Shown here one piece after another: positions 41,900-58,743 of a stretch of DNA of 64,000 nt. Under the pieces are notes generated by a model. That model ran no database searches and was not told the DNA's origin. It was given only the letters and a program-made list of their open reading frames with translations. Position 1 is the first letter of the stretch; each line of letters begins with the position of its first letter. The stretch is from an uncultured archaeon (GTDB lineage: Archaea; Asgardarchaeota; Thorarchaeia; Thorarchaeales; Thorarchaeaceae): contig CAYYQL010000001.1 of NCBI GenBank assembly GCA_964473825.1, positions 1 through 64,000 on the forward strand. The letters are read 5' to 3'. Both the position numbers and the translations under genes were made by a program.

Positions 41900-41973
41900 C
41901 CTTCTCGCAGATGGCTTGTGAAGACGCTTAGCTTAATTAGGGAAAAGGCCTGAATATGAGAGGAGATACAAAC

Positions 41974-42126
41974 ATGACCGAAGATGAAAGAAACGAAGAA
42001 GAGATACTAGAGTCACAGAAGCTCTCATCCAAAGACAAACAAGAGATCCAAGAGGGTCTCTGTGTCAACTGTGCTGTGGTGATGTTCATCTTCATGATCA
42101 TAGCTCTCACTACATTTGTGCTGTGA
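41974..42126 (+). CDS. Small tail-anchored membrane protein (50 aa)
   Basis: MTEDERNEEEILESQK...CVNCAVVMFIFMIIALTTFVL; AGGAG upstream; not in the ORF track. Confidence 0.6.
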   Translation: MTEDERNEEEILESQKLSSKDKQEIQEGLCVNCAVVMFIFMIIALTTFVL

Positions 42127-42144: not shown

Positions 42145-42317
42145 GTGACTTTTCTTATAGACCCGCCCTTGCTGGTCACGTTCGGTTTCATCTCCTATGC
42201 GATTGGTGCTAGGCTACAGGATTGCACAGATCTTCCCATAGGTAAAATCCTGGCACTGTTCAGCACAGTCACAATAATCTTCACAAGCACTTCTCTGTAT
42301 CTGAACCTCTGGTACAT
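42145..42317 (+). pseudogene. 5' half of host membrane-protein gene interrupted by the integrated element
   Basis: ...SLYLNLWY ends in the att core; joins in frame to 58552-58743. Confidence 0.85.
42308..42317 (+). repeat. attL core TCTGGTACAT
   Basis: Identical to 58544-58553. Confidence 0.9.
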
Positions 42318-42377
42318 AGCAGACAATTCCCTCTCAATATGTAACGGATAATGCCCTTTAGAGATATCATTGCGATA

Positions 42378-42416
42378 TTTTGTGTAGATTCTACCCCCAC
42401 CCCCGTGATATATATC
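42378..42416. repeat. 39-bp sequence, inverted copy of 57056-57094
   Basis: TTTTGTGTAGATTCTACCCCCACCCCCGTGATATATATC versus reverse complement of 57056-57094: 34/39 ungapped identity. Confidence 0.85.
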
Positions 42417-42583
42417 TCACTGAGCTCTCCGGATACCTGGTCCCTCAACTCGTTGGTAAAAGCAGAGAGCATGTCTGAGATGTTCTTGAGGAGTGCTCGG
42501 CGAGGACTCCTATAGGGAGTGGTTCAGTCCAGAACGTGAGAGTCGCCCATGTCAGACTCTTCTGACTTGGAGGATGCCTTGAG

Positions 42584-42742
42584 ATGACTGATACGCGCAA
42601 CAAAATCGATATCACGGAGGAACTGAAGAACGCAGTTCTCGAACTGGTTGGCAGTTTTCTTCGTGAGGCCCGTTCCATGTGCTCTAGCGACGAGGAGTTC
42701 TATCGAGTGATCGACTGGCTGATCTCGCGCGATAAGAAGTGA
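42584..42742 (+). CDS. Small helical protein (52 aa), similar to 55229-55366
   Basis: MTDTRNKIDITEELKNAVLELVGSFLREARSMCSSDEEFYRVIDWLISRDKK; GGAGG upstream; stop codon abuts a repeat core. Confidence 0.6.
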   Translation: MTDTRNKIDITEELKNAVLELVGSFLREARSMCSSDEEFYRVIDWLISRDKK

Positions 42743-43228
42743 CTCGTTGGTAAGAAGAGAGGTCTCCTTGTCTGATGTTGCTGGGTAACTAGCGGCCAAC
42801 AGCTCGAGGGCTAGTTGCAGGGTAACGACTCGAGAATGCATCCCTCCGAGTTGGCGCCCGCCAACTCTCTGAGTCTTCTCTCTACGAGACTAAATAGTAC
42901 CGAGGACCTAGACCACTTGGACCACCTAGACCGGAGAGTACTCATGCTCAAGGAGATCTCATCTGAGACTGCCAGTTACCAACGAGTGAGAAGTCCGCCG
43001 TTTCTGAGCAGATAGGTATAGCTGAACCCATTTCACGGGGATAAAAATGCATGGGCCTCTCATTGGTAAGAATGCCCTTGAGAGCGTCTCTGAGACTCGG
43101 CCAATCATCAAGAGTCCTGTAGTCTGGTTCCTCACCCGGTAGCTGAGTCGTCTTCTGTGGTGCCGAGAGCGTGATTTGACCTCCTTAATAGTCCTGTAGA
43201 ATCACCTTTTGATAGGACTGTGCTGATT

Positions 43229-43510
43229 ATGACAGACAACGATGAGAGCCCGCTCCTGGTCAGGATCCCTGGACGAGATGAGGACCGGTCCGCCGCGAAG
43301 CATCCCCGGCCCCGATGTGGGATCTGTGGACGTCCAACAGTGGTCGCCACCATAGACCGGGGCAAGACCGAGAAGAAGGGGAAGAGGCCAGTGGGCCGAC
43401 CCAGGAAGGGCGCAAGATACACTCGCTACCGAAAGATCGGGAGGTACTGCGCCTATTGCGAGATCTTCTACTATCCCAACGGCACCCCTGACTACAGGTT
43501 GAGAGGCTAG
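43229..43510 (+). CDS. Small Zn-finger protein with AT-hook-like motif
   Basis: CGIC ... RPVGRPRKG ... CAYC. Confidence 0.6.
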   Translation: MTDNDESPLLVRIPGRDEDRSAAKHPRPRCGICGRPTVVATIDRGKTEKKGKRPVGRPRKGARYTRYRKIGRYCAYCEIFYYPNGTPDYRLRG

Positions 43511-43556
43511 AGAAGAATAGCTTCTCCAAGTTCACGGGGCACGGTCTCCTGTCCTG

Positions 43557-44153
43557 GTGAACCTTGGTCTCCCTCGAGCATCGAGGCCCACACGTATGGA
43601 TCAACACTCGTTGGTAACTGCTGAGCAGCTGAGGAAGTTGGCGCCCGCCAACTCGTTGGTAACTGTAGAGAACATATCCATCGTCCTGCCTTACTCATAC
43701 ACTATAGCTGAAGAGCAAGAAGACGGGCGACTTTTCACTCACCCTCTGATAACAGCCTCGAAACGGCCTCTCGCGCTTGTCTACGATTCGTCTGGGCAGA
43801 CTTGGTCCAGAGAAGAATTTGCCTTCCATACGATCTCTCCGCTGAAGATTCGGCATCGGAGGGTTGTGCGAGCTCCCCGAGGTTCCCAGAAGAAGGTCTC
43901 AGAACTCGTTGGTAACTGGACGTCAGGTGTCCTTCTCCCTGTAGGTCGCAATGAGATCCTCGAGTCGCTTTCTGATTGCCTCTTTGACGAACTCAGCAAA
44001 GGACGTGTAGCCGAGGCCGATCTCTTCATTCTTCTTCTCAACAAGATCCCTCAAGGACTCGGGAATGCGTACCGTGATGTATTCGTCAGACATGATTCAT
44101 CCGAGACCACCGCGAGAGATAATCCCTTCCTATCAATATTGAATCACCTATGA
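43557..44153 (+). CDS. Hypothetical protein (contains three repeat copies; 5' end doubtful)
   Basis: 198-aa ORF; N-terminus is made of repeat DNA. Confidence 0.35.
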   Translation: MNLGLPRASRPTRMDQHSLVTAEQLRKLAPANSLVTVENISIVLPYSYTIAEEQEDGRLFTHPLITASKRPLALVYDSSGQTWSREEFAFHTISPLKIRHRRVVRAPRGSQKKVSELVGNWTSGVLLPVGRNEILESLSDCLFDELSKGRVAEADLFILLLNKIPQGLGNAYRDVFVRHDSSETTARDNPFLSILNHL

Positions 44154-44170
44154 CGCAAAGGCTTAAGTAT
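44152..44170 (+). promoter_or_regulatory. Putative BRE/TATA promoter of the RHH-TFB operon
   Basis: GACGCAAAGG-CTTAAGTA about 25-30 bp upstream of ATG 44187/44193. Confidence 0.45.
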
Positions 44171-44192
44171 CACGGATGAATCATAGATGGCT

Positions 44193-44351
44193 ATGACTGA
44201 ATACAAGGGCGTCAAGATCCCGGCTGAACTGGCTGAGATCATTGACGTTAAACTGGTCAAGGAATCCGGCTACACTTCTCGAGCAGACTACATCAAGGAG
44301 TGCATCCGCAACGATCTCAGAAAGCGTGGGCTCCTGGGAGGGTCGGAGTGA
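44193..44351 (+). CDS. Ribbon-helix-helix (CopG-like) regulator, 52 aa
   Basis: MTEYKGVKIPAELAEIID...GYTSRADYIKECIRNDL; missed by the ORF track. Confidence 0.8.
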   Translation: MTEYKGVKIPAELAEIIDVKLVKESGYTSRADYIKECIRNDLRKRGLLGGSE

Positions 44352-44635
44352 TGCGTAGGGTCGACACCGACTACTTCTCCGTCGAGTACCCCGAGGACGT
44401 GACCTGCAGGCCCTTCGCGGTGCAGGAACCTCCGCTCCTCATGATGGTCTTTCGCAGAAGGGACGGACAGGAGATACACTTCGAGACCAAGCCCGGGGCC
44501 AGGGCCAAGACTATTCTCTTCGACAAGGACATCCTCATCATTGTTGTACGTCGCGACGCAGATACCCCCGATCTTGGCGACGGAGAGCAGGTCCCTGATA
44601 TCATCTCGAGAAGACTCTCAGGGGAGGGCAACTGA
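44351..44635 (+). CDS. Hypothetical protein
   Basis: TGATG coupling to upstream and downstream genes. Confidence 0.65.
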   Translation: MRRVDTDYFSVEYPEDVTCRPFAVQEPPLLMMVFRRRDGQEIHFETKPGARAKTILFDKDILIIVVRRDADTPDLGDGEQVPDIISRRLSGEGN

Positions 44636-44988
44636 TGGACTGCTATGAGTTTTCCTCGATTTCTCGGGTATCAGACACGACCGGCTTCCATCCGATCAAG
44701 AGCGGAAGGGACTATGCCTTCGAGCCAGACAGGGAGTTCGTGACCTTCTCCCAGGAGATCAACCTCGGTAACACTCCCCTGGAGAACTGCGCTGCACTCT
44801 TGGTGAGGACTCGGAGCCCTGCCGCTGATGTCGCGAGAAGCATCAAGAAGACTGAGACCGACAGGGAGCATGCCTGGGCCGATACCTCATTCTCGAGTGC
44901 TGTGGGCCTCATCCACGTGGTCTCCGACGTGGAGGTCTCACTCTCAGTGGTCCGACCCGACCTGCTCCTGGTCTTCCTGCAGAAGTGA
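44635..44988 (+). CDS. Hypothetical protein
   Basis: TGATG translational coupling, GGGAG upstream. Confidence 0.6.
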   Translation: MDCYEFSSISRVSDTTGFHPIKSGRDYAFEPDREFVTFSQEINLGNTPLENCAALLVRTRSPAADVARSIKKTETDREHAWADTSFSSAVGLIHVVSDVEVSLSVVRPDLLLVFLQK

Positions 44989-44997
44989 TCTAGGAGG

Positions 44998-45129
44998 ATG
45001 ATGAGTCTGCCAGATCCAACAAAGCAAGAGGTCCTTGCGTGGTATCGAAAGGTCGCTCGAGAAGAAGTCAAGAAGGTCCTCGGGGAGATCAGTCCCAAGC
45101 AGCGGAGAACCCTCCAGGAGGGGATGTAG
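44998..45129 (+). CDS. Small hypothetical protein (43 aa)
   Basis: MMSLPDPTKQEVLAWYRKVAREEVKKVLGEISPKQRRTLQEGM after AGGAGG. Confidence 0.55.
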   Translation: MMSLPDPTKQEVLAWYRKVAREEVKKVLGEISPKQRRTLQEGM

Positions 45130-45130
45130 T

Positions 45131-45472
45131 GTGGAGCGGCCTGATTCTATCTCTATTGCGAAGGGCCATGTTGCTCCTGCGAATAGCCTACAGAACAAGC
45201 AGCCACTCTGTCAATCCTGTGCCAAGCGACACTTCTGCAACCAGTTCGTCTGGCAAGTTGCTCCCATGACTACCTGTGAGATGCGGATAGCCTATAGCCT
45301 GTCCTCAGAGTTATGGCTTCTATGGCTCTACCATCTTGCTCCACTCTGCCATGAATGCGCTATCTACCTGGACTGCGAGGAAGAATGCTGCGAAGAGTAC
45401 CACGATCCCCCGGCGGTCTGGTATCTCATGCTTGCCTATTCGTGGCTTGAGAAGTACAAGGAGGAGAACTAG
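45131..45472 (+). CDS. Cys-rich protein with two PLCxxCA repeats
   Basis: PLCQSCAKRHFC and PLCHECAIYLDC; GTG start likely. Confidence 0.55.
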   Translation: MERPDSISIAKGHVAPANSLQNKQPLCQSCAKRHFCNQFVWQVAPMTTCEMRIAYSLSSELWLLWLYHLAPLCHECAIYLDCEEECCEEYHDPPAVWYLMLAYSWLEKYKEEN

Positions 45473-46444
45473 ATGCAGGTACTGGTCAGGAATCAACATC
45501 TCTGCACCGAGTGTGGAGCTCCCCTCATCTCCCACAATGGGGCTCTCGTCTGCAGAGAGTGTGGTCTCGAGCACAGACGCGAACTGGTCCCAGGGACATT
45601 CAAGATCGGGGAGTCCATTGACTACGGCGAGGACTACTCCGCAAGCAGGTCGACGTCCGTCAACGATGCAGATGTCCTCGTAGATGGTGATGGTCTCGGG
45701 ACTTATATCTCCAGCTCGGTGAGAATGAGCTCCAGTTACCAACGAGCCAAGATCTACCGACTGCAGCAGCTCAATCGTCGCATCGCCTTGAAGCACCTGG
45801 AGCAAGAACGCAAGGTCCTTGTCTGGCTGGGTCGCTACGCCTCTGAGCTCGGACTCTCAGGCCAGATAGTGAGAAGAGCCAAGCATCTCTGCAAGCAGGC
45901 AATGAGACGCCTTCAGCAGGTCGGCGACGAGTTCAACAACTGCAGTCTGAACCGGGTCATCCTGGGCTGCTCTTCAACGATCTTCGCAGCTCGAGAGGCA
46001 AGAGTCCCGATGGATCCCCAGGAGATCATTGACGTCTGGGCCCAGCGTCATCGGGTCACTCTCTGCAACGTCAGGAAGGGCCTGTACTGGATCCAGAAAC
46101 AGACAGGGATTCCGTTCTCCTTCTCGAGGCCGATCGATTATGTTGACAAGACGGTCTCCGAGCTCAGGGCCTGCAATGAACTGATGGAACGAATCAGTGA
46201 CAGGGGACTTGATCTAGAGCGACTGATGCAGAGGCTGCGGCAAGATCTCAGCATGATTCTCAGTGCTACTCCCTCGGTTGTCTATCAGGGACGAAAGCCC
46301 TCAACCCTGACCCCAGCCCTTGCGTACGTTCTGCTGAAACGGCAGTGTGTCGGGGTGAGCCAGAAGGTGGTCGCTAGGGCCTGCGGAATCAGCTACCTGA
46401 CAATGCGGTACGGCTCTAGCCTTTGGAGGGAATACCTGAGATGA
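45473..46444 (+). CDS. Divergent transcription initiation factor B (TFB/TFIIB) homolog
   Basis: N-terminal Zn ribbon CTECG...LVCRECGL, DGLGTYI linker, cyclin folds (ASELGL, IFAAREARVP, RPIDYV, QGRKPS, SQKVVARACGIS). Confidence 0.85.
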   Translation: MQVLVRNQHLCTECGAPLISHNGALVCRECGLEHRRELVPGTFKIGESIDYGEDYSASRSTSVNDADVLVDGDGLGTYISSSVRMSSSYQRAKIYRLQQLNRRIALKHLEQERKVLVWLGRYASELGLSGQIVRRAKHLCKQAMRRLQQVGDEFNNCSLNRVILGCSSTIFAAREARVPMDPQEIIDVWAQRHRVTLCNVRKGLYWIQKQTGIPFSFSRPIDYVDKTVSELRACNELMERISDRGLDLERLMQRLRQDLSMILSATPSVVYQGRKPSTLTPALAYVLLKRQCVGVSQKVVARACGISYLTMRYGSSLWREYLR

Positions 46445-46641
46445 CGATCAGGATCATCGGTCGGGAGCAGGTGGTCTGTGACTGCACCGGCAACACCTCT
46501 GAGACCTACCAGGACAGGCTTCTGGTGGGCATATCCCACAGCAGGGACAGCATTATCGTCCGGGTGTTCTGTCCCGAGTGCGACGCGACCCGTGATTTCA
46601 CCATCAGGAGTGGTCTGCACCTGGACTGGATGTCTCACTAG
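46441..46641 (+). CDS. Small Zn-binding protein
   Basis: CDC ... CPEC; ATGA overlap with TFB; stop TAG is part of a repeat copy. Confidence 0.6.
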   Translation: MTIRIIGREQVVCDCTGNTSETYQDRLLVGISHSRDSIIVRVFCPECDATRDFTIRSGLHLDWMSH

Positions 46642-46925
46642 TTACCAACGAGTTGAACCGACCAGGAGAGATTTCCTCCCTGGCGGGAATTCGCTCTATC
46701 GAGCGAGGTGATGAATGGGAACTGACGGACCTGGAGTACACTGTCATGCTCTCGGCCTCTCTCAGCTAGAACAGGCGGTTTCAGATCGCCCTCTCCTATT
46801 TCTTGAGATGGTGCTTAGCCAGAGGTCACGTCGACCAGCTTGACAAGTTGGCGCGCGCCAACTCGTTGGTAACTTGAAACAGCTGCAGAAGTTAGCGCGC
46901 CAAGTGTCAGAGGATAAAAGGGGGG

Positions 46926-47381
46926 CTAATCAGGTATTCTACTGGACGAAGACACATCAGATACATTCGTTGATGAAACAACATAGACGGGCTCTTGGAA
47001 CTGGTTAATGCGAGATGATCTGACAACCCTTGATACGATTAGTCTGACCTTCAGAATGTCTCCATTCTCCAGTCGATGTGTATTCCACACTTCCTTAACT
47101 GGCTCGAAATCAACCATTGTCCGAGTTTCTTCAATTCCTTCCTCTTCAGACAAGGCAAGTGATTTTGCTTCTTTGGATACTCTCACACTGGTGACATTGG
47201 TAGCAGCATAGGCAATAAGAGGTCCGCCCGATATCTTGAGCTGGTGGGTGTCGAAGACTTTGAATACGATGGGTCTGATTCTCATCCTCGAACCATCTAC
47301 TAAATCATATTCATTCCATCCTTCATGGATGGGTTCGAAATCAAGTTCTGTAGCTTCTTCGCTGAGTTTCCTTATCTCCAA
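46926..47381 (-). CDS. Hypothetical protein with internally duplicated ~70-aa domain
   Basis: DFEPIHEGWNEYDLVDGSRMRIRPIV / DFEPVKEVWNTHRLENGDILKVRLIV. Confidence 0.75.
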   Translation of the reverse strand: MEIRKLSEEATELDFEPIHEGWNEYDLVDGSRMRIRPIVFKVFDTHQLKISGGPLIAYAATNVTSVRVSKEAKSLALSEEEGIEETRTMVDFEPVKEVWNTHRLENGDILKVRLIVSRVVRSSRINQFQEPVYVVSSTNVSDVSSSSRIPD

Positions 47382-47383
47382 TG

Positions 47384-47947
47384 CTATCCTCTCATCTTGT
47401 TTGCCTTCACATCATAAATCTTGATTGGATGTGTGTCTGACCAGAATCCCTTGTCAAATGTGGCCAGATAGTCACATCCGAAGTAGCATGCAAGCGAAAT
47501 ATGGAATGCATCGTTTCCACCAATCCCCACCAGCTTCTGGTTCGAGCCTCTCATGGCGACACGGTAGTTGGAATTCCTTAGCTGGTCCAGACCAAGCTCT
47601 AGCACTGCCCATACAAGGGGAGCATTTCTTCCTAGAATTGACAGCTCAAACTGAGTACCTGAAACAAACTCAAGATTCTTTAGAGCCATGATCTTTCCGA
47701 CTCCTTGTACTACATCCTGCTCAATGACTCCATAGTTCGTGTAGTTCTTGCGGACACAAGCTTTCCGAATGACGCTAATCATCTCCATCAATGCCCAAGT
47801 TGAAACAATCCCTGTTGCTGTTCCTTGTGCTATCTGCTGAAAGAAAGCCTTAGTGGCTCGTCTATCTCTACTGCGTCCGTAGCCGCTGAGATAGTTTAGA
47901 AGGACCGATGTATCGATGTAACAGAAACCGGCGGGAATCGAAGACAT
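47384..47947 (-). CDS. PIN-domain (VapC-like) nuclease/toxin
   Basis: YIDTSVL, ME, NDAFHISLA, LATFDKGF acidic PIN residues. Confidence 0.85.
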   Translation of the reverse strand: MSSIPAGFCYIDTSVLLNYLSGYGRSRDRRATKAFFQQIAQGTATGIVSTWALMEMISVIRKACVRKNYTNYGVIEQDVVQGVGKIMALKNLEFVSGTQFELSILGRNAPLVWAVLELGLDQLRNSNYRVAMRGSNQKLVGIGGNDAFHISLACYFGCDYLATFDKGFWSDTHPIKIYDVKANKMRG

Positions 47948-47960
47948 CCTTTCTCCCTCT

Positions 47961-48359
47961 CTACTTGAGTCTGACCTCTCTCAGCAGGTCCTCGACAGTC
48001 TTATCTTCCTCTCCATCGAATAGATGGGCAAGTGAGCCAAACCCATCTTCAATTGATTCAAAGCATGGATGAGGTAAGGGTCTATCCCCGGCTATAATCC
48101 TCCAGATGCGTTGTCTGCTGTGCTCGGCAACACGCCGTCCCTCTACGGACGTAGTTAGTGAATATGTAGGAACTATGGACACCTGTAGTTGAAGCATGGA
48201 GAAATGTTGTCTTGAATCGGTAGAGCACTCGACAGGATTCTGGGTTTCTTCAGGAGCAACTCGGACTAGAACGCAGTCCATCAGGTTCTCCGACGTTTCC
48301 GGGGATATCTGAAGAATGGATTCATTTTGTTCTTTTGAAACCAGCACTGGACCCACCAC
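47961..48359 (-). CDS. Putative antitoxin (VapB-like C-terminus)
   Basis: Upstream of PIN gene; C-terminal GSL...TVEDLLREVR typical of VapB tails. Confidence 0.5.
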   Translation of the reverse strand: MVGPVLVSKEQNESILQISPETSENLMDCVLVRVAPEETQNPVECSTDSRQHFSMLQLQVSIVPTYSLTTSVEGRRVAEHSRQRIWRIIAGDRPLPHPCFESIEDGFGSLAHLFDGEEDKTVEDLLREVRLK

Positions 48360-48560
48360 CAGGAGTACCTCTCCGAATTCTAGTATGCCTTCCTCAGATA
48401 AAAGGGTTTTTCGTCAGGGCAATCAGGTCAACCCTATTAGAATCCACAGTGTATCCAGTACCCTATCCACCTTGACCAAGAACTAGAGGGCACTCCTGCT
48501 TGAATGGTCACAGGACTATTCAACTCGTTGGTAACTACGACTTGAGGTTGTTAAAAGGCA

Positions 48561-49289
48561 TTGGCACTACTAGAGACCATGAGTCTAACAGGTGGGATCT
48601 ATCGAACCCAGGATGAGAATGCGAATCTCCTGACGGTGATCTACATCGTCGCTGGTGCATTGACTGCGACCTTCTCGGCTCGAGCAGTCATGAATGACCC
48701 TACTCAGCTCAGCCGATGGCTACTCTTCTTGGTGTGGCTGGCATTGGGCATCAGTATCGCTGCACTCATCGGCGTGCAGGCTCGACCCGAGCGGGTCATC
48801 GGAGAGGGCTTTGCTCTCTCGATTGGTATCATAGGCTACTCGGTCATCATGGTGATCCAGTACTGCATGGTGCTGGTCTCGGCCTTCATGCCCTTCTCCC
48901 AGATGAACTTCTACTTCGCGATTTTGGCCCCGATATCGGAGACCTTCTTTTTCACGGTCACGCTGTACAGGATCATCCGCGTGGCCCTTCCTGCCTTCAC
49001 CTGGCTCTTCTCGAACCTGATCTCGTCGATTACCTTCGCGCTGTATCACTACTTCGTCTATGGTCTGGACCCGATTTCGCTCATCGTCCTCTTCTTGGGC
49101 AACACCGTCCTCAACTACACCTTTGAACTGACGAAGAACCCTGCAGCACCCATCACGGCACATCTCCTCGTGAATCTGACGCCCTACTGGTGGGACGTCG
49201 CGGGTCTCTTGGTTGCCAACTGGTGGATGATTGCACTCCCGATCTTCCTCACTGTGGTGTGCATCATCTGCGGCGGGACCCGGCGCTAG
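48561..49289 (+). CDS. CPBP/type II CAAX-like intramembrane protease
   Basis: Multi-TM; APISETFF (EE motif degenerate), FALYH, AHLLVN. Confidence 0.75.
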   Translation: MALLETMSLTGGIYRTQDENANLLTVIYIVAGALTATFSARAVMNDPTQLSRWLLFLVWLALGISIAALIGVQARPERVIGEGFALSIGIIGYSVIMVIQYCMVLVSAFMPFSQMNFYFAILAPISETFFFTVTLYRIIRVALPAFTWLFSNLISSITFALYHYFVYGLDPISLIVLFLGNTVLNYTFELTKNPAAPITAHLLVNLTPYWWDVAGLLVANWWMIALPIFLTVVCIICGGTRR

Positions 49290-49637
49290 TTACCAACGAG
49301 TGGACTGAGACCGTCCTCTCATCTCCTTGCTTCATGTTGCTCAGTAACTACTGGCCAGTTACCAACGAGTCAGAAGAAGCGATTCTCGACCTGTGACACT
49401 GTCTTGTTGCTCCCCTCAGCATTCAACAGTGACGAAGTTATTAAGAATCGGTCATATCTTGATAGTGTGACCTAAGGTGCTTCTTGACCCAGAGAGCGGG
49501 AGGGACCGCTGCTATCTGTTCTCTATGTTTGACACCACTGAGAGTGGTGGTAGTCTAGACACTTCAGGGAGTCGGTGTCAACCACTGAGATTTTCGCGAA
49601 AAACGAGAATCCGTCTACACCCTTCTCTTCATTGGCG

Positions 49638-49773
49638 CGGAGGAGATGGGGCAGGGGATCTCTGGGGACAGGTGGGAGGGCTGGAGGGGAACGGGAGCGC
49701 CAGGGACCAGGAGCGGAGGGGCGAGAGGGCGGTGGTGGGGGCGCCATGAAATTTTTGCGGAGGAGGGGGAGTG
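49638..49773 (+). other. Strongly G-skewed non-coding tract with G-quadruplex potential
   Basis: More than ten runs of GGG to GGGGG in ~135 bp. Confidence 0.7.
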
Positions 49774-49814
49774 TAGACGATTAACTATGAAGAATCTCAA
49801 GGAGACGATAGACG

Positions 49815-50102
49815 GTGACCACTGAGAAACCTAACTTCGTGGAGAGGAATCTGGATGAGGCGACGGCTGAGGTTTTTGCCCTGCTTGCAGAGCAGCGACG
49901 TCGCACAGGGACCTTCCTGATATCGCAGAAGGCTCTTCGGAAACAGATTCAAGACCGATTCGGCGGGAGTCCCACGCAGGCCGGCTACCTTGCCAGGGGT
50001 GTGATGAAACGCTTGCAGGAGCGGGGAATCGCGGAGATCTGGGACCAAGAGAAGATGTCCAGCTTCAAGAAGAAGATCTACAAGGTCCATGCGGAGGTCT
50101 GA
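49815..50102 (+). CDS. Winged-helix-like DNA-binding protein, paralog 1
   Basis: ARGVMKRLQERGIAEIW...KKIYKV; similar to next gene. Confidence 0.7.
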   Translation: MTTEKPNFVERNLDEATAEVFALLAEQRRRTGTFLISQKALRKQIQDRFGGSPTQAGYLARGVMKRLQERGIAEIWDQEKMSSFKKKIYKVHAEV

Positions 50103-50104
50103 CT

Positions 50105-50374
50105 GTGACAAGATATGTCGAGCAGAATCTCGAGGAGGCCTACCAGGAGGTTCTCAGCATCCTGGAGGAGCAACGACGCCGCATGGGAACATTCGTTATC
50201 TCGCTGAAACGCATCAGGACCTATGTATCCGAGAGGGTCGGGGGACACAAGAGCCAGGTGGGACGTCTGAGCCGGGCAGTGATGGAACGGCTCGAGCAGG
50301 AGGGCGTTGTCCAGATCTGGGATGAGTGGGAGATGAGGAAGTACAATCGCCGGGTCTACCAGGTCCGTGCCTGA
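50105..50374 (+). CDS. Winged-helix-like DNA-binding protein, paralog 2
   Basis: SRAVMERLEQEGVVQIW...RRVYQV. Confidence 0.7.
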   Translation: MTRYVEQNLEEAYQEVLSILEEQRRRMGTFVISLKRIRTYVSERVGGHKSQVGRLSRAVMERLEQEGVVQIWDEWEMRKYNRRVYQVRA

Positions 50375-50908
50375 GACCCTGAAGGTAAGTTTATTAAGTC
50401 TAGACGGAATCGTAATAACATGCCTTGCGAAATCCTCCCCGGACTTCTTGAAGCAAGGTATTCCTCTCGTGATTTCTGGTCCTGATCTCATCATCAGGAC
50501 CTCTTTTCCTTGTTCATCAAAAGAGCATTATTTACCAACGACGGCTTTTTATATTTCTAGACAGAAGGACTGAGTGTCTTTTCTCTCGGGGAGGGACGAA
50601 AGGACTCGCGCCTCGGCGCGGATTTGCATAGGAAATCATGAGATGAAAAGAATGAAAACTGCCCTACGTGAAGTTGGGACTGGGCGTGGAAGAGCCCTAG
50701 CCTCTCAAAAGCAAGGCTCTCGTCACGACTGCTGCAGTCCCAGAAAGAACAAAGCTGACTCCCCTTATGAAGGCAGCTGTAATACCAGTGGCGTCAGCCA
50801 CTGCGGCAAGATACTGTTTCTCAAGTACTCCAGGGTCTGTTTCGAGAGGCTTTATGGTCCTCTGCATAGTTTCCGGAGTCCGAGCGACATCATCCAGGGG
50901 GTGCATTC

Positions 50909-51631
50909 TTGAACTCCAAGAATGAGTCCACATATATCGTTGAGGCTCAGCCTGTCGAGATTCCGACTCTCTGGATCGACAAGACCAAACACGCTCTCAA
51001 GGAGCTCGAGCGCTTCAAGCGAGAGATAGCGACTCCTGATGACTATCAGACCATCAGGGGCAAGCCGTGGCCCACGAAATCATTCTCTCGAAAGATGGGC
51101 CTGTCGGCCAATCTCCGCGATGAGATTGTAGAGAAAGAGAGAATTGACCGGCAGGACGAGAGCTTTGTGTGGTTTCTAACCGTGAGAGTGACTGCTCCGA
51201 ACGGCCGGTTCTGCACTGCTGTCGGTGCTTGCGACAGTAGGGAGCGGAACTTCAACCACGTAGAGCATGATGTCTTTGCCACTGCCCACACGAGGGCAAA
51301 GAACAGGGCGATTCTGGATATGGTCGGCGGGGGAATGATCTCCGCTGAAGAGATTGAGTCGATTCCTAGTGAAGAGTCGGCCTCGCATGAATCTTCAGCA
51401 ATAGGTAACGAGTCATTATCCGGGGAGAAAATCATCGACACGGTGCAGGGACACGGCCTTGAGACCGATGGAATGGAGGTATCCACGGAGAACGGCCAGC
51501 TCATCGTCCTGCTCAAGGGCTATGTTGGGCGTGACCTCTGGGACCGGTACGACGCAATCATGCGCCAGCTGGGCCTTGCCTATACCAAGCCAGAGGGCAA
51601 GGATAGGGGATTCTGGGGGGTGATTGCTTGA
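50909..51631 (+). CDS. Rad52/Sak-like single-strand annealing protein
   Basis: VRVTAPNGR..TAVGAC, ATAHTRAKNRAILDMVGGG.ISAEEI. Confidence 0.6.
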   Translation: MNSKNESTYIVEAQPVEIPTLWIDKTKHALKELERFKREIATPDDYQTIRGKPWPTKSFSRKMGLSANLRDEIVEKERIDRQDESFVWFLTVRVTAPNGRFCTAVGACDSRERNFNHVEHDVFATAHTRAKNRAILDMVGGGMISAEEIESIPSEESASHESSAIGNESLSGEKIIDTVQGHGLETDGMEVSTENGQLIVLLKGYVGRDLWDRYDAIMRQLGLAYTKPEGKDRGFWGVIA

Positions 51632-53826
51632 CCATCGAAGACCTCGGAGACAGCATCGAGCTAGACGCGAACAACCTCGCAGTGAGGATAGCCCTATCTG
51701 TCGAGCAAGACGGCGGGTTCCTCTTCCACGACGGAGGAGAGCCCTATGTCCACATGGCCGACAACGGTCGGTCTGAGATCACCCACCTTCGCAACGCGCG
51801 TTTCCGCAGTATGCTAACTCATAAGTCGATGAGATATGAGGGGCTACCCGCAGGGAAGGAAACCGTCGAGAACGCAATCCGAATCCTAGAGGCTGTCGCG
51901 CTGTTCAGTAGTCCAGAGATCCGGTTGCATAACCGGGTTGCCATGCAGGACGGGGGTATCTACTTCGACCTCTCAGACATGGGGGGCCGATGTGTACATA
52001 TCACGCCGGACGGCTGGGAGATTGAGAAGGCGCCTATCCTCTTCAGGCGATACAAGCACCAACGCCCGGCGGTCCTTCCAAGCAAGAGCGAGCGTCCCAT
52101 CAAGGAACGACTGGAGAGCTTCTTGGAGCTGGTCAACTATGACCGCGACACCGAGCTCTTGCACCTGGTTGAGCTGGTCTTCAGCTTTGTCCCTGACGTC
52201 CCGCATCCTATCCCGGTTGTGTACGGGCAACAGGGCTCTGCGAAGTCCTCATTCTTCAGAGTCTGGGGTCGCCTGGTTGACCCCTCAGACCTTGAGGATG
52301 CGGTGCTTCCGCGCAAGGAGGTCGAGATGATCCAGAAGCTGGAGCACCACTGGTTTCTTGCTTTTGATAACGTTTCTAAGCTGTGGGAGTGGCAATCTGA
52401 CGATCTGTGTCGCGCAGCCACCGGCACCGGGTTCTCAAAGCGCAAGCTCTACAGTGACGATGAGGATATCATCTATAAGTACAAGAGAGTCGTGGGACTC
52501 AATGGTATCAATGTCGCAGCCGAGAGACCGGACCTTCTGGACCGGTCGATACTGCATGAGTTCCCCGAGATACCCCTAGAGGACCGGATGGAAGAGCGCG
52601 AGATCTGGGAGAGGTTCGAACGGGCTGCACCTGATATCATGGGTGCAATCTTTGACGCACTCTCTGAGGCATTACGAATACTGCCTACTGTAAATCTTAC
52701 CGGCCTCTACCGAATGGCGGACTTCACACGGTGGGGTTGTGCCATAGCCGAGGCCATTGGCTACAGCCAACAGGACTTTCTGAATGAGTATTGCAACAAC
52801 ATCAACACGCAGAACACGGAGGCCTTGGAGAACAACCCGGTCGGTACTGCAGTACTGTCGTTCTGGAATAGCCTGGACCTGATTGACGAACGGTGGAGAA
52901 ATACCCCGACCCAGGCGTACCAGACCCTGACAAAACACGCCGAGGGACTCGATATCAAGGTGTCCGGGAAGGACTGGCCGAAGAGCCCCGCAGCCATGAG
53001 TCGGGAACTAAACCGCCTCAAGACGAACCTCAAGAAGGAGGGGATCCTGTTCGAACGGCCACGAGAGGGGAATGTCCGATACTGGCAACTGAGCCCCGTA
53101 GAAGGTTCCGAGTATGTCGTCACAGTCGTCATGTCGTCACAGAGCAGCGCAGAAGGCGAAATTCCGCCTTCTAACGATGACGATACTTGTGACGATATTA
53201 GCGATACCCGAGAATGTCGTCATAATGTCGTCACCGAGAACGGGCCCGAAACGGCCTCTCCTGATGATTGTGACGCTGTGACGACAATGACGATAAAGTC
53301 GGAAACACTTGGGGGCACCCCGGAAGAGCTCAGAGCCTTCGTGGGTAAGGACCAGTACTCAGTCAGGTTCCTGATAGGTCGCGGTTTCAGCCTTGGAACG
53401 ATGCAGGAGCTACACAGTCAGGGACGAGGAGAGATCGTCAGGGTCGGATCTGGTGAGATACACTTCAGACTGACAGAGAATGGCCGTCAACAGCCTTGTG
53501 AACCGGAGACGCGGTCGCGTCAACCACTACTGAATAGCGCCGGGAACCCAGATCATGACGGTCAAACGGCGGACGTGGACAACCCGGGGATCTCGAGCAC
53601 CACACCCAGACTCTTCGAGCAATTTCTCGACTGGCTCAAGGCTCACGGCCTCGATATGCGAGGTAAGGCGATCACGCGACAGGAGATAGAGGCCTTCTGG
53701 CATGGCCCAGATAAGCAGCTGCATGACTGGATGTTCAAGGCACTCGATGAAAACTACATTAGAGAAGTGGAACCCGGCGTCTATTGCTGGGACACCCGGG
53801 CAACGCGGGAGGGGGTGGTCTCCTGA
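51628..53826 (+). CDS. Putative replicative P-loop ATPase/helicase (SF3-like) with C-terminal wH domain
   Basis: Walker A GQQGSAKS, Walker B LAFDNVS, RKLYSD, LNGI, DLLDR, RMADF. Confidence 0.75.
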   Translation: MTIEDLGDSIELDANNLAVRIALSVEQDGGFLFHDGGEPYVHMADNGRSEITHLRNARFRSMLTHKSMRYEGLPAGKETVENAIRILEAVALFSSPEIRLHNRVAMQDGGIYFDLSDMGGRCVHITPDGWEIEKAPILFRRYKHQRPAVLPSKSERPIKERLESFLELVNYDRDTELLHLVELVFSFVPDVPHPIPVVYGQQGSAKSSFFRVWGRLVDPSDLEDAVLPRKEVEMIQKLEHHWFLAFDNVSKLWEWQSDDLCRAATGTGFSKRKLYSDDEDIIYKYKRVVGLNGINVAAERPDLLDRSILHEFPEIPLEDRMEEREIWERFERAAPDIMGAIFDALSEALRILPTVNLTGLYRMADFTRWGCAIAEAIGYSQQDFLNEYCNNINTQNTEALENNPVGTAVLSFWNSLDLIDERWRNTPTQAYQTLTKHAEGLDIKVSGKDWPKSPAAMSRELNRLKTNLKKEGILFERPREGNVRYWQLSPVEGSEYVVTVVMSSQSSAEGEIPPSNDDDTCDDISDTRECRHNVVTENGPETASPDDCDAVTTMTIKSETLGGTPEELRAFVGKDQYSVRFLIGRGFSLGTMQELHSQGRGEIVRVGSGEIHFRLTENGRQQPCEPETRSRQPLLNSAGNPDHDGQTADVDNPGISSTTPRLFEQFLDWLKAHGLDMRGKAITRQEIEAFWHGPDKQLHDWMFKALDENYIREVEPGVYCWDTRATREGVVS
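53115..53295. repeat. Iteron-like cluster TGTCGTCA / TGACGA(C/T)A inside the ATPase gene
   Basis: + copies at 53115, 53124 (1 mismatch), 53132, 53215, 53226; - copies at 53178, 53190, 53279, 53288, partial 53271. Confidence 0.75.
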
Positions 53827-53886
53827 TGTCTGCGGCAGAGAAGGAGAGTCTCAAGCCTCTTGTCCGCGCAAAGGGGATTGAGAAAC

Positions 53887-54612
53887 CTACTTGGGATCCA
53901 GACCATCCCGTCCATGTCGTTCGAGGGGATCTACATACATGGCTTCTTCGAGTTTCCAAATCCTAGAGAATTGCTGCTCTAGATGCGCCTGGTATTGAAT
54001 GAAGAACCACTCAAGGTATCTGTCAAGATCGTGACGTCGTATCAGTTTCTTGACAACAAACTGTGCCTCAAGCGGAACCAGATTCTCCTTTGCCAGATCT
54101 GAATGCCACGGTGGCAATCTCGCGGGAGGAATCACCAAGTATGTGAGGAAGGTTCGCTCAAAAGCGTCTTGATATACTTCTTGGTCTGCGAGTTCCTCGG
54201 GATACTCTCCCTCCCAGTGAATCATCCGTTTGACGGTGATCTGTAGCACATGTAGCACATCAGAGAGCATCAGTGTAATTGTAGCCTCGTTCCCCGGACC
54301 GATCGAGTTGAAGACAGCAAATACACGCGGGAAAAGACCCTTCCAATGGTCGGCCAGTAGTATAGTTGCAGGATTATCGCTGATTGCCAATGCATGAATT
54401 AGGCCTCGATGTGTCAAGGAGAGAAGGTCAGATGGGTGAGTATGGGGCTGCAAATCATGGACTCCGTAATCACCGGTTACCAATTTCTTCTCTTTGAGCA
54501 ATCCCGCTGCTCGGGAGGCATTAGACACGCCACCCATTCGATTCCCAATAGAAGACCCCTGAAGGGCCAGATGTAGCAGCATGGCCTTCTCGTCCTTTGT
54601 TTTATCATACAT
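53887..54612 (-). CDS. Hypothetical protein with N-terminal wHTH-like region
   Basis: GVSNASRAAGLLKEKKLV...LSLTHRGL; divergent from the RHH gene. Confidence 0.55.
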   Translation of the reverse strand: MYDKTKDEKAMLLHLALQGSSIGNRMGGVSNASRAAGLLKEKKLVTGDYGVHDLQPHTHPSDLLSLTHRGLIHALAISDNPATILLADHWKGLFPRVFAVFNSIGPGNEATITLMLSDVLHVLQITVKRMIHWEGEYPEELADQEVYQDAFERTFLTYLVIPPARLPPWHSDLAKENLVPLEAQFVVKKLIRRHDLDRYLEWFFIQYQAHLEQQFSRIWKLEEAMYVDPLERHGRDGLDPK

Positions 54613-54689
54613 TAGAAGTTATACACCTCGCGCCTTACTTCTGTAGAGCATCTAACTGGTTAATAATACTTACTGCATGGCTTGTATTC

Positions 54690-54899
54690 ATGAAAGATAG
54701 TATTGTCACGAGCTTTCGCTTGTCTAGGGATACTCACAGTCTGGTTTCTCAGGTGTGTGAGAGCAGGAGCGAAACCCTGGGCACTTTCATCCGCAGAGCA
54801 ATTCTGAAAGAACTCGCGAATCTGAGTTTTCTCCCCGATGAGCAGAAGAAGGCTCTGGGTATCGAAGTCCCAGACGAGGCGTCTACAGGAGGGCAGTGA
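54690..54899 (+). CDS. Ribbon-helix-helix regulator
   Basis: IVTSFRLSRDTHSLV...TLGTFIRRAILKEL. Confidence 0.7.
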   Translation: MKDSIVTSFRLSRDTHSLVSQVCESRSETLGTFIRRAILKELANLSFLPDEQKKALGIEVPDEASTGGQ

Positions 54900-54902
54900 T
54901 CT

Positions 54903-55217
54903 GTGGATGCCTACAACGAGGCCAACCTAGCGGTGCTCCGCGAGAAAGCAGAACTTGCAGACCAGAGAGCCGAGGAGGTCCAACGTCTTCAGCAACAGAT
55001 CATCCGCATGGCAGCAACCAACAATACTCTCGAGAGCGAGCTCAAGGCTCTTCGCAAGAATGCTGAGCTCCTGGCGGTCGAAGATGCTTGGATCCGGGAC
55101 GGCTCATCGGCCTATGACTTCTGTGGCTGCGGCGGCAAGAAGAAGACCTGCTATGAGATCATCATGACGGAGTGCCTGGAATGCGGAGAGGAGATCCGGG
55201 CCTTTCCCGATGAGTAG
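54903..55217 (+). CDS. Coiled-coil plus Zn-finger protein
   Basis: Heptads followed by CGCG...CLECG. Confidence 0.6.
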   Translation: MDAYNEANLAVLREKAELADQRAEEVQRLQQQIIRMAATNNTLESELKALRKNAELLAVEDAWIRDGSSAYDFCGCGGKKKTCYEIIMTECLECGEEIRAFPDE

Positions 55218-55228
55218 GGGGAGAGAGA

Positions 55229-55366
55229 GTGAATAACACAGCTGAGACCCCGATGCGGGATCTTGTTCTGCAGATCATGAGAGAGACCCGAAAGCAGTGC
55301 AGCCGAGAGGAGTTCCAGGAGCTGCTAGACGAGTTTGAGACCATGCTCGACGAGGTCGAGGAATAG
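55229..55366 (+). CDS. Small helical protein (45 aa), similar to 42584-42742
   Basis: DLVLQIMRETRKQCSREEFQELLD; GGGGGAG upstream. Confidence 0.55.
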   Translation: MNNTAETPMRDLVLQIMRETRKQCSREEFQELLDEFETMLDEVEE

Positions 55367-55382
55367 GAGGTCTTGCACACGC

Positions 55383-55619
55383 ATGAGTAATGACATCATC
55401 GAACGCCTAGACTTTGACCCCGGCGACTGGAACTACATCAAGTCGCGAGAAGACCTGATTGAGGAGCTTCGCGACTACAAGCGCGAGTTCCAGATCAATG
55501 AGTGGACTGAGGAAACGATCAGCCACTTCCTGCAGCTCAAGGACTGGCTCATCAGCCAGGGCCCACATCTGCGACATATCAGGACCCTCTACACGATCCT
55601 GTCGGAGGTCGACCTCTAG
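55383..55619 (+). CDS. Hypothetical protein
   Basis: AGGAGGT upstream; abuts the helicase gene. Confidence 0.6.
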   Translation: MSNDIIERLDFDPGDWNYIKSREDLIEELRDYKREFQINEWTEETISHFLQLKDWLISQGPHLRHIRTLYTILSEVDL

Positions 55620-57329
55620 ATGCCGGAGATAACGGACAAGCGAATACTGAGTATTCCTGCAGATGTACGAAAATTCGTAGATGTGGAAAGGTGCCAGAGT
55701 ATTCCTTCTTCTGTCTACCCTGTCTCCGAGGACTTGCCGGAAATCTCTCTGGATGAGGTCGCCGACGTACTTAGCTCCACAATTGCCAAGGACTGGACCA
55801 CAAAACTCGTCACCTTTATGGTCCTGTTGCTGACCTACACACACGAGGATCAGACAGGAATTCTCTATCAGGCTGGGTCCAGCACCGGCAAGTCACATAA
55901 TGCACTTGAAGTCACAAAGGGATACTTCCCGGCAGAGGATGTTATTAAGAAGGACTATGCCTCTCCAACTGCGTTCTTTCACAAGCAGACTGAGCTATGC
56001 GTTCGCAGCCGCGACGACTGTTTCTATCCTGTCCTCTCGAAGCGAGAGTATGTCAATCGCCAGATGCAAGAGTGGGATAAGGCAAATCCCAAACCAGAAG
56101 AACGGGGAGAGAAGACAGAGCACAGAAACCATCGGAATGCTGCGAAGGGGAGGTTCGCCGACGAGTGGGATAGCCTAGAGAAAGTGTGGTTCTGGGATTT
56201 ATCACGTAGAATTCTTCTCTTCAAAGATATGCCTCATGACCTGGTTTTGGCGAATCTGAGACCTTTGATTTCGAAAGACGAGCAATACTTTGAAGCAGAT
56301 ATCACGGACAAGAGTACATCTGGGCAACATGCCACTAAGACCATCGTTCTGAAGGGTTTCTCTACCTTCCTCTTCTGTTCTGCGTCATACTCTCAGGATG
56401 AGCAGGAACGCACACGATTCTTTCTACTTAGTCCCGAGGTCCAGAGTGAGAAAATCAAGGCGGGAGTCAGAATGGCAATTCAGCGTTCCTGCAATCGCCC
56501 TAGATTCGAGGGGAATATTAGAAAAGATGAGAGGAGGGCAGCACTTCGAGAGCGTGTTCTCAGCATTCGCGCAGCATCTATCACAGACGTAATCATTCCT
56601 GATGACCTCACGCAAGAGATTGAGAACAGAATCTTCGACGAACATGATAGCCTGCAACCACGTCTCATGCGAGATGCCCCCAGGATGATTGCCCTTATGA
56701 AAGCTCACGCACTTCTGAACTTCTCGAACCGGCAACAGAGAAACGGCATCATCGTAGCGACGGAGCGCGATGTCCAGGTTGGCTACGAGCTCTATAGACC
56801 CATTGCTGAAGCAAACGAGAGAGGAGTACCGCCTCAGGTCTATGACTTCTACGAGAAGCGACTAGAACCTTCGATTAGGGCCAAAGCAGAAGAGGACGGT
56901 ATCCAGGGAATCTCCAGAAAGGACTTTGTCCGTCTCTGGTTTGATGAATTCAATGAGCAGATTGGCTACAAACGCATGGTAGAGATTCTCCATCTCATGG
57001 ACAACGCCGGACTTGCATCTGAGAGAGAGAATCCAGCAGACAAGCGCGAGAAGCTGATATATATCCCTGGGGGTGGGGTAGAATCTGCACAAAAAGAAGC
57101 AATGCCTTCAGCGCCTTTTGACAGGTTTCTCTCATGGCTGATCACTCATGGTCTGGATATGCGAGGTAAGACGGTCTCGAGGGCTGAGATCGCCTCAGCA
57201 TGGGAAGAGTCTGATGAGAAGCTGAATGACTACCTCTTCAAGGCCCTGGACGAGGAATACCTGAGAGAGACCGAACCAGGCGTCTATCACTGGGGGTCGA
57301 GAGCCACGAAAGAGGGAATCGTGGACTGA
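55620..57329 (+). CDS. MCM-like AAA+ helicase with C-terminal wH domain
   Basis: Walker A AGSSTGKS, ERTRF arginine finger, RDAPRMIALMKAHALL...ATERDV sensor-2/lid region. Confidence 0.7.
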   Translation: MPEITDKRILSIPADVRKFVDVERCQSIPSSVYPVSEDLPEISLDEVADVLSSTIAKDWTTKLVTFMVLLLTYTHEDQTGILYQAGSSTGKSHNALEVTKGYFPAEDVIKKDYASPTAFFHKQTELCVRSRDDCFYPVLSKREYVNRQMQEWDKANPKPEERGEKTEHRNHRNAAKGRFADEWDSLEKVWFWDLSRRILLFKDMPHDLVLANLRPLISKDEQYFEADITDKSTSGQHATKTIVLKGFSTFLFCSASYSQDEQERTRFFLLSPEVQSEKIKAGVRMAIQRSCNRPRFEGNIRKDERRAALRERVLSIRAASITDVIIPDDLTQEIENRIFDEHDSLQPRLMRDAPRMIALMKAHALLNFSNRQQRNGIIVATERDVQVGYELYRPIAEANERGVPPQVYDFYEKRLEPSIRAKAEEDGIQGISRKDFVRLWFDEFNEQIGYKRMVEILHLMDNAGLASERENPADKREKLIYIPGGGVESAQKEAMPSAPFDRFLSWLITHGLDMRGKTVSRAEIASAWEESDEKLNDYLFKALDEEYLRETEPGVYHWGSRATKEGIVD

Positions 57330-57331
57330 GA

Positions 57332-58474
57332 TCAGTCAGACTTCTCTCGTTGCTCCTTCGCGTACGCCTTGGCAAAGGCCTCAGCAAAGCTCTGCATGAG
57401 CTCGGGGTCTTCCTTGATCTGTGAAACGATCATCTGACCCGCGGAGTCAGTCGCGAGAGCCTTGTCCTGCAGCGTGTTGCAGTTGGGACAGTACTGCGAG
57501 TCTGCGCCGATTATGAAACCACAGTTCCAGCACTTGACCCTCTTCTTGACCTCGCGTTCCTGGACAATCCCAAGCGCCTCAAGCTCCTCCCTCTCATAGT
57601 CCTGGTCGAAGTACTGATGGTAGTGCTGCTCGAACACTTTTGAGTCCCGGGTATGCCCAAGCCTTCTCCTGATTGCGGAGTCCGTCAGAAGATCCTCATT
57701 CTTCCAGTGGGTTGAGGCCGACTTTCTGAACAGCGTTGCGTAGAGCTCCATGCCAAGGACTCTGCTTGCCCGCCGGTAGGCATCCGAGATATCGTGGGGT
57801 TGGATCCTGTTCCCCTTGCCATTGACAAAGAGTGGGCCGGTTCCCTTATGCGTTCGATAGTAGAACTGGAACCATTGAAGCCCTAGCTCGGTGATCATCC
57901 GCAGGGCTCGAGTCTTGGTCTTGGAGTCCTGGATGTGAAGGACATAGCCATGCTGGTCCCTGATCACGTCGTCATAGTCCAGGCTACAGAGCTCGGACGG
58001 TCTCATGCCGGTGTCCCAGAGGACTGCAGTTATCGCCTTCCAGACATGGGTGTAGTGATAGTCAATCACTCGTTCCACGTCCTCAGGAGTCAGGAGGTCC
58101 TTTGCCGTCTTGACTCGCCTGGCAGTCCTGGACCGGGACTTGAGCATGTCTTTGTAGGGCTCTTTGGATGCATCTATCCCGTGGAACCCAAGCCAGTATC
58201 GCAGGCCTTGGGCTGCAGTGTTGAAAGTGTTGTTGGAGACCCTACCCCGCTTGAGCTGATTGCCTCCCTCTGAGAATGTCCTTGAGACCTTGTAGTTGAG
58301 TCGTCTGGTCAGGACTCCCCTGATATCGTCGGGAGAGGGTCTCTTCAGGGGTAGATCGAAGTAGGTCAGTAGAGCCCTGATCGCATCAGTGTTGGTCTTG
58401 ATGGATCTCTCTCGAGCCTGACCACCGACCTCAGCCCGGAGGTAGTCTCCGAATCTGTCCAGTGTTGCCTGCAT
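57332..58474 (-). CDS. Tyrosine recombinase/integrase with C-terminal Zn ribbon
   Basis: TGMRPSEL, SKT, LFRKSAST, RLGH, HY catalytic residues; CWNC...CPNC. Confidence 0.93.
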   Translation of the reverse strand: MQATLDRFGDYLRAEVGGQARERSIKTNTDAIRALLTYFDLPLKRPSPDDIRGVLTRRLNYKVSRTFSEGGNQLKRGRVSNNTFNTAAQGLRYWLGFHGIDASKEPYKDMLKSRSRTARRVKTAKDLLTPEDVERVIDYHYTHVWKAITAVLWDTGMRPSELCSLDYDDVIRDQHGYVLHIQDSKTKTRALRMITELGLQWFQFYYRTHKGTGPLFVNGKGNRIQPHDISDAYRRASRVLGMELYATLFRKSASTHWKNEDLLTDSAIRRRLGHTRDSKVFEQHYHQYFDQDYEREELEALGIVQEREVKKRVKCWNCGFIIGADSQYCPNCNTLQDKALATDSAGQMIVSQIKEDPELMQSFAEAFAKAYAKEQREKSD

Positions 58475-58543
58475 TGAATCACCAGGATACCAAGGACAAC
58501 GGTCTCAGATAAGTCTTTCATGTTCAGGTTTAGTTATGTCTTA

Positions 58544-58553
58544 TCTGGTACAT
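58544..58553 (+). repeat. attR core TCTGGTACAT
   Basis: Identical to 42308-42317; 70 bp upstream of the integrase start. Confidence 0.9.
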
Positions 58554-58743
58554 GGATTGGTTCTGGATACCCTTCTATCCAGCCGTGACATCGGGGAGGG
58601 ATCTCATGATTAACTCTGGCATCTTTTCTCTTGAAGCTGTGAACACTCAAGGCATAATTGACGTCTTGGCCATGTTACAGATTGCCCTCTATCCTCTCTG
58701 GGTCATCTTAGGCACGCAGGCCTATCGGCGGCATAATCGTTAG
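58552..58743 (+). pseudogene. 3' half of the interrupted host membrane-protein gene
   Basis: MDWFWIPF... continues ...LNLWY in frame. Confidence 0.85.

Follow-up and report, generated by a model that had tools for sequence, protein, structure and literature searches.

Among the thaumarchaeal integrated mobile genetic elements (iMGEs), 14 of 68 reside in protein-coding genes, where they occupy the 3'-distal regions, and the cryptic integrated elements (CIEs) have a median size of 17 kb, with attachment (att) sites of 8-26 bp (median 17) (PMC6563490). For the Asgard archaea, the portions of the literature considered here describe integrated elements (Atabeyarchaeia Yucahu-i and others) with an 11-bp AT-rich att motif and integration/excision dynamics (PMC11529989), integration sites beside tRNA and rRNA genes (PMC11529989, PMC8813620 for the Heimdallarchaeum elements, and bioRxiv 10.1101/2021.07.29.453957, as a group) and 'enigmatic' mobile genetic elements that encode the transcription factor TFB (bioRxiv 10.1101/2021.07.29.453957). 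The present analysis concerns a stretch of 64 kb (hereafter the window; contig CAYYQL010000001.1 of assembly GCA_964473825.1, positions 1 to 64,000) from an uncultured archaeon of the Thorarchaeaceae (genome G000), in which an integrase-bearing element lies inside the gene for a 120-aa membrane protein. The locus was analysed in silico, using the assembly and related genomes, and it probably represents the recent site-specific insertion of a circular plasmid-like element of about 16.2 kb, by which an accessory gene was knocked out.

An original prediction, made from the sequence alone, had placed an element within a protein-coding gene. This is borne out by the integrase that the element carries, by the two copies of TCTGGTACAT at its break-points and by the empty site in the genome G002 of the same genus. 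The features on which the interpretation rests are as follows.

42145..42351, plus strand: N-terminal fragment of the target gene, native codons 1-57 (42145-42315) followed by 11 element codons and a stop
42308..42317, plus strand: attL core, the left copy of TCTGGTACAT, located by repeat search and empty-site alignment
42318..58543, no strand: body of the integrated element, 16,226 bp (16,236 bp including one core copy), GC content above that of the flanks, no homology to the G002 empty site
57332..58474, minus strand: intact tyrosine integrase gene (380 aa, zinc ribbon CxxC...CxxC at the C-terminus), start codon 70 bp from the attR core
58544..58553, plus strand: attR core, the right copy of TCTGGTACAT, located by repeat search and empty-site alignment
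58552..58743, plus strand: C-terminal fragment of the target gene, native codons 58-120, from the native Met58

The two listed copies of TCTGGTACAT are the only ones in the window, a number reached by none of 100 shuffles, and the direct repeat is exactly 10 bp long, the bases beyond it differing on both sides. Genome-wide, the 10-mer occurs five times in 3.27 Mb against about six expected and is by itself not significant; the assignment of the att cores is solid because the repeat sits at the exact break-points of homology, not because it is rare. The GC content is about 0.54-0.56 across most of the region from 43 to 58 kb and about 0.49 outside it. Neither tRNA genes nor Rfam families were found in or beside the region, and a tRNA target was rejected, the window being devoid of tRNA genes. 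No longer match to attP that could serve as a candidate primary attB was found elsewhere in the genome.

The empty site was sought with the N-terminal 57 residues as the query against the relatives, and excision was carried out in silico by a script that deleted one repeat copy and the intervening DNA, the resulting junction being aligned to G002. The excised junction matches G002 at 640 of 753 nucleotides (85%), collinearly and gap-free at the junction, where G002 reads CTCTGGTACATGGA. The uninterrupted G002 frame is exactly 120 aa long and reads ...LNLWYMDWFWIPF..., in agreement with the predicted in-frame restoration of 57 and 63 residues on excision. Translation of the first fragment gives the 57 native codons to LNLWY, then the 11 codons of IADNSLSICNG and a stop; its native part is 88% identical to residues 1-57 of the G002 protein. 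The second fragment translates to 63 residues beginning MDWFWIP, its ATG straddling the end of the right repeat, and is 82% identical to residues 54-120 of the same protein. In the other congener, G001, the matching frame has 128 codons (the called open reading frame, ORF, is 122 aa). The exact 10-bp core is kept in G002 and 9 of its 10 bases in G001, with further divergence in the more distant orthologues. Neither half of the target was found a second time in the G000 genome, and the reading frame of the N-terminal fragment continues for 11 codons in foreign DNA; the element thus does not rebuild its target, as had been predicted. The accompanying contrast with tRNA-targeting archaeal integrases was overstated, protein-coding targets being documented for the thaumarchaeal iMGEs cited above (PMC6563490).

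A search of the whole family detected the target gene in 26 of the 86 genomes, representing 10 of the 16 genera, and the gene is therefore an accessory one. Wherever else in the family a strong full-length match was obtained, the gene is in one piece, and G000 alone shows two half-matches that share a contig; the joined membrane protein of the original prediction consequently does have full-length homologues in related genomes. The element is absent from this site in both congeners. The two halves contain neither a stop nor a frameshift, the lineage-specific residue changes number five each in G000 and G002, and the ratio of nonsynonymous to synonymous substitution rates (dN/dS) between these two is 0.18. 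This lack of decay indicates that either the event is recent or the gene is still under selection.

The integrase is a single-copy gene in the genome. It matches PF00589 with 57.9 bits (cut-off 27.1) over residues 128-287 and the phrog_1 integrase with an E-value of 7e-20, while its best NCBIfam match, archaeal XerA, scores 64 bits, far below the cut-off of 220. Residues R158, K185, R250 and Y285 are invariant in an alignment with three homologues of 33-50% identity (four sequences) and, from the usual order of the motifs, would represent the catalytic Arg, Lys and Arg and the nucleophilic Tyr. A split integrase of the SSV type was rejected, the ORF being whole.

According to the proposed explanation, a circular element of about 16.2 kb would integrate through its tyrosine integrase by site-specific recombination between an attP carrying TCTGGTACAT and an identical 10-bp attB at codons 55-58 of the membrane-protein gene. 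The cut would fall behind the second transmembrane helix of the target; the first 57 residues would acquire a foreign tail of 11 residues, and the last 63 would be deprived of the promoter-proximal half. The gene is thus most likely knocked out, and its loss would be tolerated because the gene is accessory. Precise excision could restore it, since the integrase is intact and both cores are perfect; such excisability is best read as the ordinary reversibility of an integrated element and not as a switch adopted by the host.

The closest integrase found anywhere, P0002, is 51% identical, and among 400 Asgard genomes, integrases of 44-46% identity are present only in three further genomes, all from Thorarchaeota, to which the clade was confined in this set. 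The metagenome and family loci with integrases of 42-46% identity contain no copy of the 120-aa gene in the available flank; at one of them the integrase lies downstream of an intact 289-aa neighbour gene. Scans of IMG/VR with the integrase, the 732-aa protein of the element and P0069, a database protein corresponding to the C-terminal half of the target only, returned no relatives.

A related element of about 10.8 kb was identified in G002 (L064 4053-14821; G002:C1, about 460052-470820). It has the ribbon-helix-helix (RHH) genes, the TFB gene, the 240-aa gene and the terminal part of the replication gene in the same order, with partial collinear similarity, while its integrase is only 27-30% identical to that of the window. 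Its core of 14 bp, ATTATGTTTG(T/C)ATT, shows one mismatch between attL and attR and abuts the stop codon of a 310-aa gene, such that nothing is disrupted, and the corresponding empty site is present in G000 (C24:21102-21115). From the shared backbone and the different integrases of these relatives it follows that the backbone is modular and that the insertion site follows the integrase; comparison of the sequences suggests an exchange of the integrase module accompanied by a change of target in the G002 element. A contig of 7324 bp from another genome (G020:C68, L065) encodes a homologue of the 569-aa protein of the window element, an integrase and then, directly, an RHH pair, which matches the arrangement that a circular relative of the element would be expected to show across its attP junction; no overlap between the ends of this contig was detected.

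The other recognisable genes of the window element, together with the gene immediately upstream of the target and a repeat near the left end, are listed below.

41956..42126, plus strand: intact gene for a 56-aa small membrane protein with one predicted transmembrane segment, just upstream of the target; conserved in G002 and G001, 18 bp ahead of the 120-aa gene
42378..42416, plus strand: 39-bp repeat, inverted relative to 57056-57094, 87% identity; in the circular form the pair would bracket the integrase gene and attP
43923-44093, minus strand, and 44187-44351, plus strand: divergent pair of small RHH genes, weak Pfam RHH_1/RHH_8 matches, homologues in the G002 and G020 elements
45473..46444, plus strand: 323-aa TFB/TFIIB-like putative transcription factor with a zinc ribbon and two cyclin folds, from homologue profiles, AlphaFold2 and Foldseek
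47384..47947, minus strand: PIN-domain protein (PF01850, E 5e-7) in a low-GC cargo block (GC 0.46)
48561..49289, plus strand: CAAX-protease/Rce1-like membrane protein (PF02517, E 5.5e-10) with five hydrophobic segments
51628..53826, plus strand: 732-aa putative replication protein, primase/helicase-like, from tblastn
55620..57329, plus strand: 569-aa P-loop protein (Walker A motif at residue 85), neighbour of the integrase both here and in the G020 element

The 323-aa protein yielded no Pfam match on its own sequence. Its homologues (n=40, from an exhaustive profile search) contain PF00382 in 25 cases and PF08271 in 15, and its AlphaFold2 model, with a predicted local distance difference test (pLDDT) score of 84, is matched by Foldseek to TFIIB (7nvu_M, E 5e-8) and to the Pyrococcus TFB (1ais_B, target-normalised TM-score 0.76). 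The profiles and the model together identify it as a divergent TFB, 54% identical to its counterpart in the G002 element. The 732-aa protein resembles gene 37 of the Microbacterium phage Zeta1847, annotated as a DNA primase or helicase (tblastn E 7e-28, 26% identity over residues 110-484), and a protein-atlas search pointed to D5/DUF5906/PriCT clusters, which may serve as a lead only. The 569-aa protein, for which no match was found in Pfam, PHROG, PADLOC or the PDB sequences, has its homologue in G020:C68 at an E-value of 7e-81. Similarity between the two large proteins is limited to a C-terminal domain of 69 aa (59% identity, E 8e-26), and the canonical Walker A motif is present in the 569-aa protein only.

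Pfam, PHROG and PADLOC scans of the element ORFs, many of which are without assignment, recognised no capsid, terminase, packaging or conjugation genes and detected no transposase or casposase, and no candidate for a His1-like small capsid protein with two transmembrane segments was found among them. No CRISPR-spacer-like matches to the element occur elsewhere in the genome. The element is best called a CIE on the classification of PMC6563490 and is probably an integrative plasmid; with so many ORFs unassigned, a novel virus is possible. The 39-bp inverted repeat could mark the edge of a module or represent arm sites. In the left arm of the element, short repeats (23-30 bp) were also observed, at 43635-43664 and 46845-46874 and at 42971-42993 and 49354-49376.

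Certain observations weigh against the insertion of a circular element as proposed here. The pairing of this integrase with this target is represented by one instance only; neither IMG/VR nor the assembly yielded a free circle or an attP sequence; a transposon, too, would leave a duplication of 10 bp on its flanks; the C-terminal half, which keeps its native ATG, might be expressed, the loss of function being presumptive; and the lack of decay in the halves would be explained just as well if selection on the gene continued by way of reversible excision. The last of these bears on a switch resembling the skin and nifD elements, as originally suggested, or on one of the active-lysogeny type, in which regulated excision and re-integration would toggle the membrane-protein gene to the benefit of the host. 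Such a switch would account for the exact restoration of the reading frame, the intact integrase with its perfect cores and the absence of decay in the gene halves, and it has bacterial precedents in the Listeria prophage that interrupts comK (PMC7397523) and in phiSa3, which interrupts hlb (PMC6597384). It is nevertheless unlikely, as the element is missing from both congeners and the gene is whole in all other family genomes that have it, the full set of replication and regulation genes is kept along with cargo, as in an autonomous element, the related G002 element occupies a non-disruptive site and no function was found for the target. Developmental excision elements recur or are fixed at their site in different strains or species; this was not observed here either, the element occurring in G000 only. 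The assembly contains no contig with an empty-site or circle junction: the sole match to the empty-site string was attR, at one mismatch, and the circle-junction string gave none. A more elaborate proposal, very unlikely in our estimate, is that the conserved LWYMDWF-coding motif constitutes a dedicated attB of the integrase clade at which the element cycles as an active-lysogeny-type switch; if true, the Asgard archaea would thereby have their first example of an excision element that controls a gene.

The same picture, one copy of the 10-mer in the empty site and two flanking the insertion, would result from transposition that duplicates a 10-bp target site, and the pair AGACA/TGTCT at the element ends would then constitute short terminal inverted repeats. 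The original prediction had described the same bases as imperfect arms of attP. They are indeed present near the core as a 5-bp inverted pair; they are weak evidence, because a 5-bp inverted pair lies equally near a 10-mer at 4.4% of random window positions. A transposon is highly improbable here, the sole recombinase detected being the tyrosine integrase beside the element end, with neither a transposase nor a casposase to accompany it, and recombination between attP and attB is favoured over target-site duplication because the core copies of the G002 element mismatch at one base. A misjoining of the element into the contig might be suspected from the nature of the genome, a metagenome-assembled genome (MAG) of 103 contigs with 4.4% contamination, and from the differing GC content of the element, but its probability is close to negligible, because both junctions lie inside one 319-kb contig whose flanks are syntenic with G002 on both sides. 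They fall, moreover, at the same 10-mer and in frame, and a repeat of 10 bp is far below the k-mer length of an assembler. Site-specific integration of a plasmid-like circle, by comparison, is the probable origin of the locus.

The target, a helical membrane protein specific to Thorarchaeota, belongs to a family of about 65 database clusters, the named members of which are nearly all from Thorarchaeota and the best annotation of which is 'conserved membrane protein of unknown function'; no family assignment was obtained from Pfam, NCBIfam or the protein atlas. An AlphaFold model built with 50 homologues (pLDDT 81) contains helices at residues 7-23, 32-53, 56-65, 72-77, 90-102 and 104-119, and Foldseek found no PDB neighbour for it. 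The insertion, between residues 57 and 58, falls within the most conserved motif of the family, YLNxxYMDWFW, at the start of the third helix. The idea that the element might remove a surface protein found no evidence, the target being without a family assignment or a structural relative.

Certain database entries and contigs related to the target are noted separately. P0069 (71 aa, on a 34-kb contig) and P0070 (68 aa) are gene calls comprising the C-terminal half only, with starts within a few codons of the insertion position, and P0069 falls in the same 90%-identity cluster as the full-length P0074; both may represent further interruptions at the same site. In G001, a second contig (G001:C278:1-3000, L024), 97.6% identical to the first (L003, G001:C168), starts within the target gene, 22 nt before the att core, which could reflect differences between strains or a break of the assembly at a polymorphic insertion. 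In three other Thorarchaeota genera, proteins of some 500 to 1000 aa begin with a distant version of the 120-aa domain (27-32% identity). Of these, the G007 protein was scanned, and DUF362 (PF04015) was confirmed in it.

L039:642-2132 (G007): long protein with a distant target-like N-terminal domain
L040:1515-3026 (G086): long protein with a distant target-like N-terminal domain
L041:2500-5592 (G045): long protein with a distant target-like N-terminal domain

The locus is a cleanly delimited and comparatively verified addition to the small catalogue of mobile elements of the Asgard archaea, and of Thorarchaeota among them; its att sites are known exactly, an empty site serves as the control and a modular relative with an exchanged integrase is available. 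It indicates that elements of Thorarchaeota can land in the middle of a gene and knock out host genes. The general view of integration is unchanged, gene-interrupting integrase elements being known in bacteria and protein-gene targets in archaea. For annotation, the two ORF fragments are to be treated as one gene, and the locus lends itself to testing, at the level of reads, for excision in populations of Thorarchaeota.

In comparison with the known systems, the element resembles the thaumarchaeal CIEs and iMGEs (Krupovic et al. 2019, PMC6563490) in its similar size, its definition by an integrase, its short att sites and its protein-coding target, as well as in the presence of an empty site in a related genome and the lack of recognisable virion or conjugation genes. 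The likeness is one of features; the host here is an Asgard archaeon, and the thaumarchaeal insertions alter only the end of a gene, whereas the cut at codon 57 of 120 severs the protein. With the Asgard integrated elements, as presented in the available portions of PMC11529989, PMC8813620 and bioRxiv 10.1101/2021.07.29.453957, it shares a tyrosine integrase, a core of 10-11 bp, a plasmid-like content and a TFB homologue, while a mid-gene insertion is not described in those portions. The element of the window shows no nucleotide or close protein similarity in IMG/VR. Like phi10403S in comK, phiSa3int in hlb, skin in sigK and the nifD element, it is a recombinase-bearing element within an ORF, the frame of which is restored by excision (here in silico); those elements are, however, recurrent or fixed and their excision has been observed, whereas the present one is a single occurrence. 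Integrases of the SSV1 type are split by integration, while the non-suicidal integrases of the pNOB8 type stay whole. The window integrase is like the latter in this feature, its ORF remaining whole when integrated because attP lies outside it, and it carries in addition a C-terminal zinc ribbon. The locus is distinguished from the known archaeal cases by its disruptive position in the middle of a gene and by its host from Thorarchaeota.

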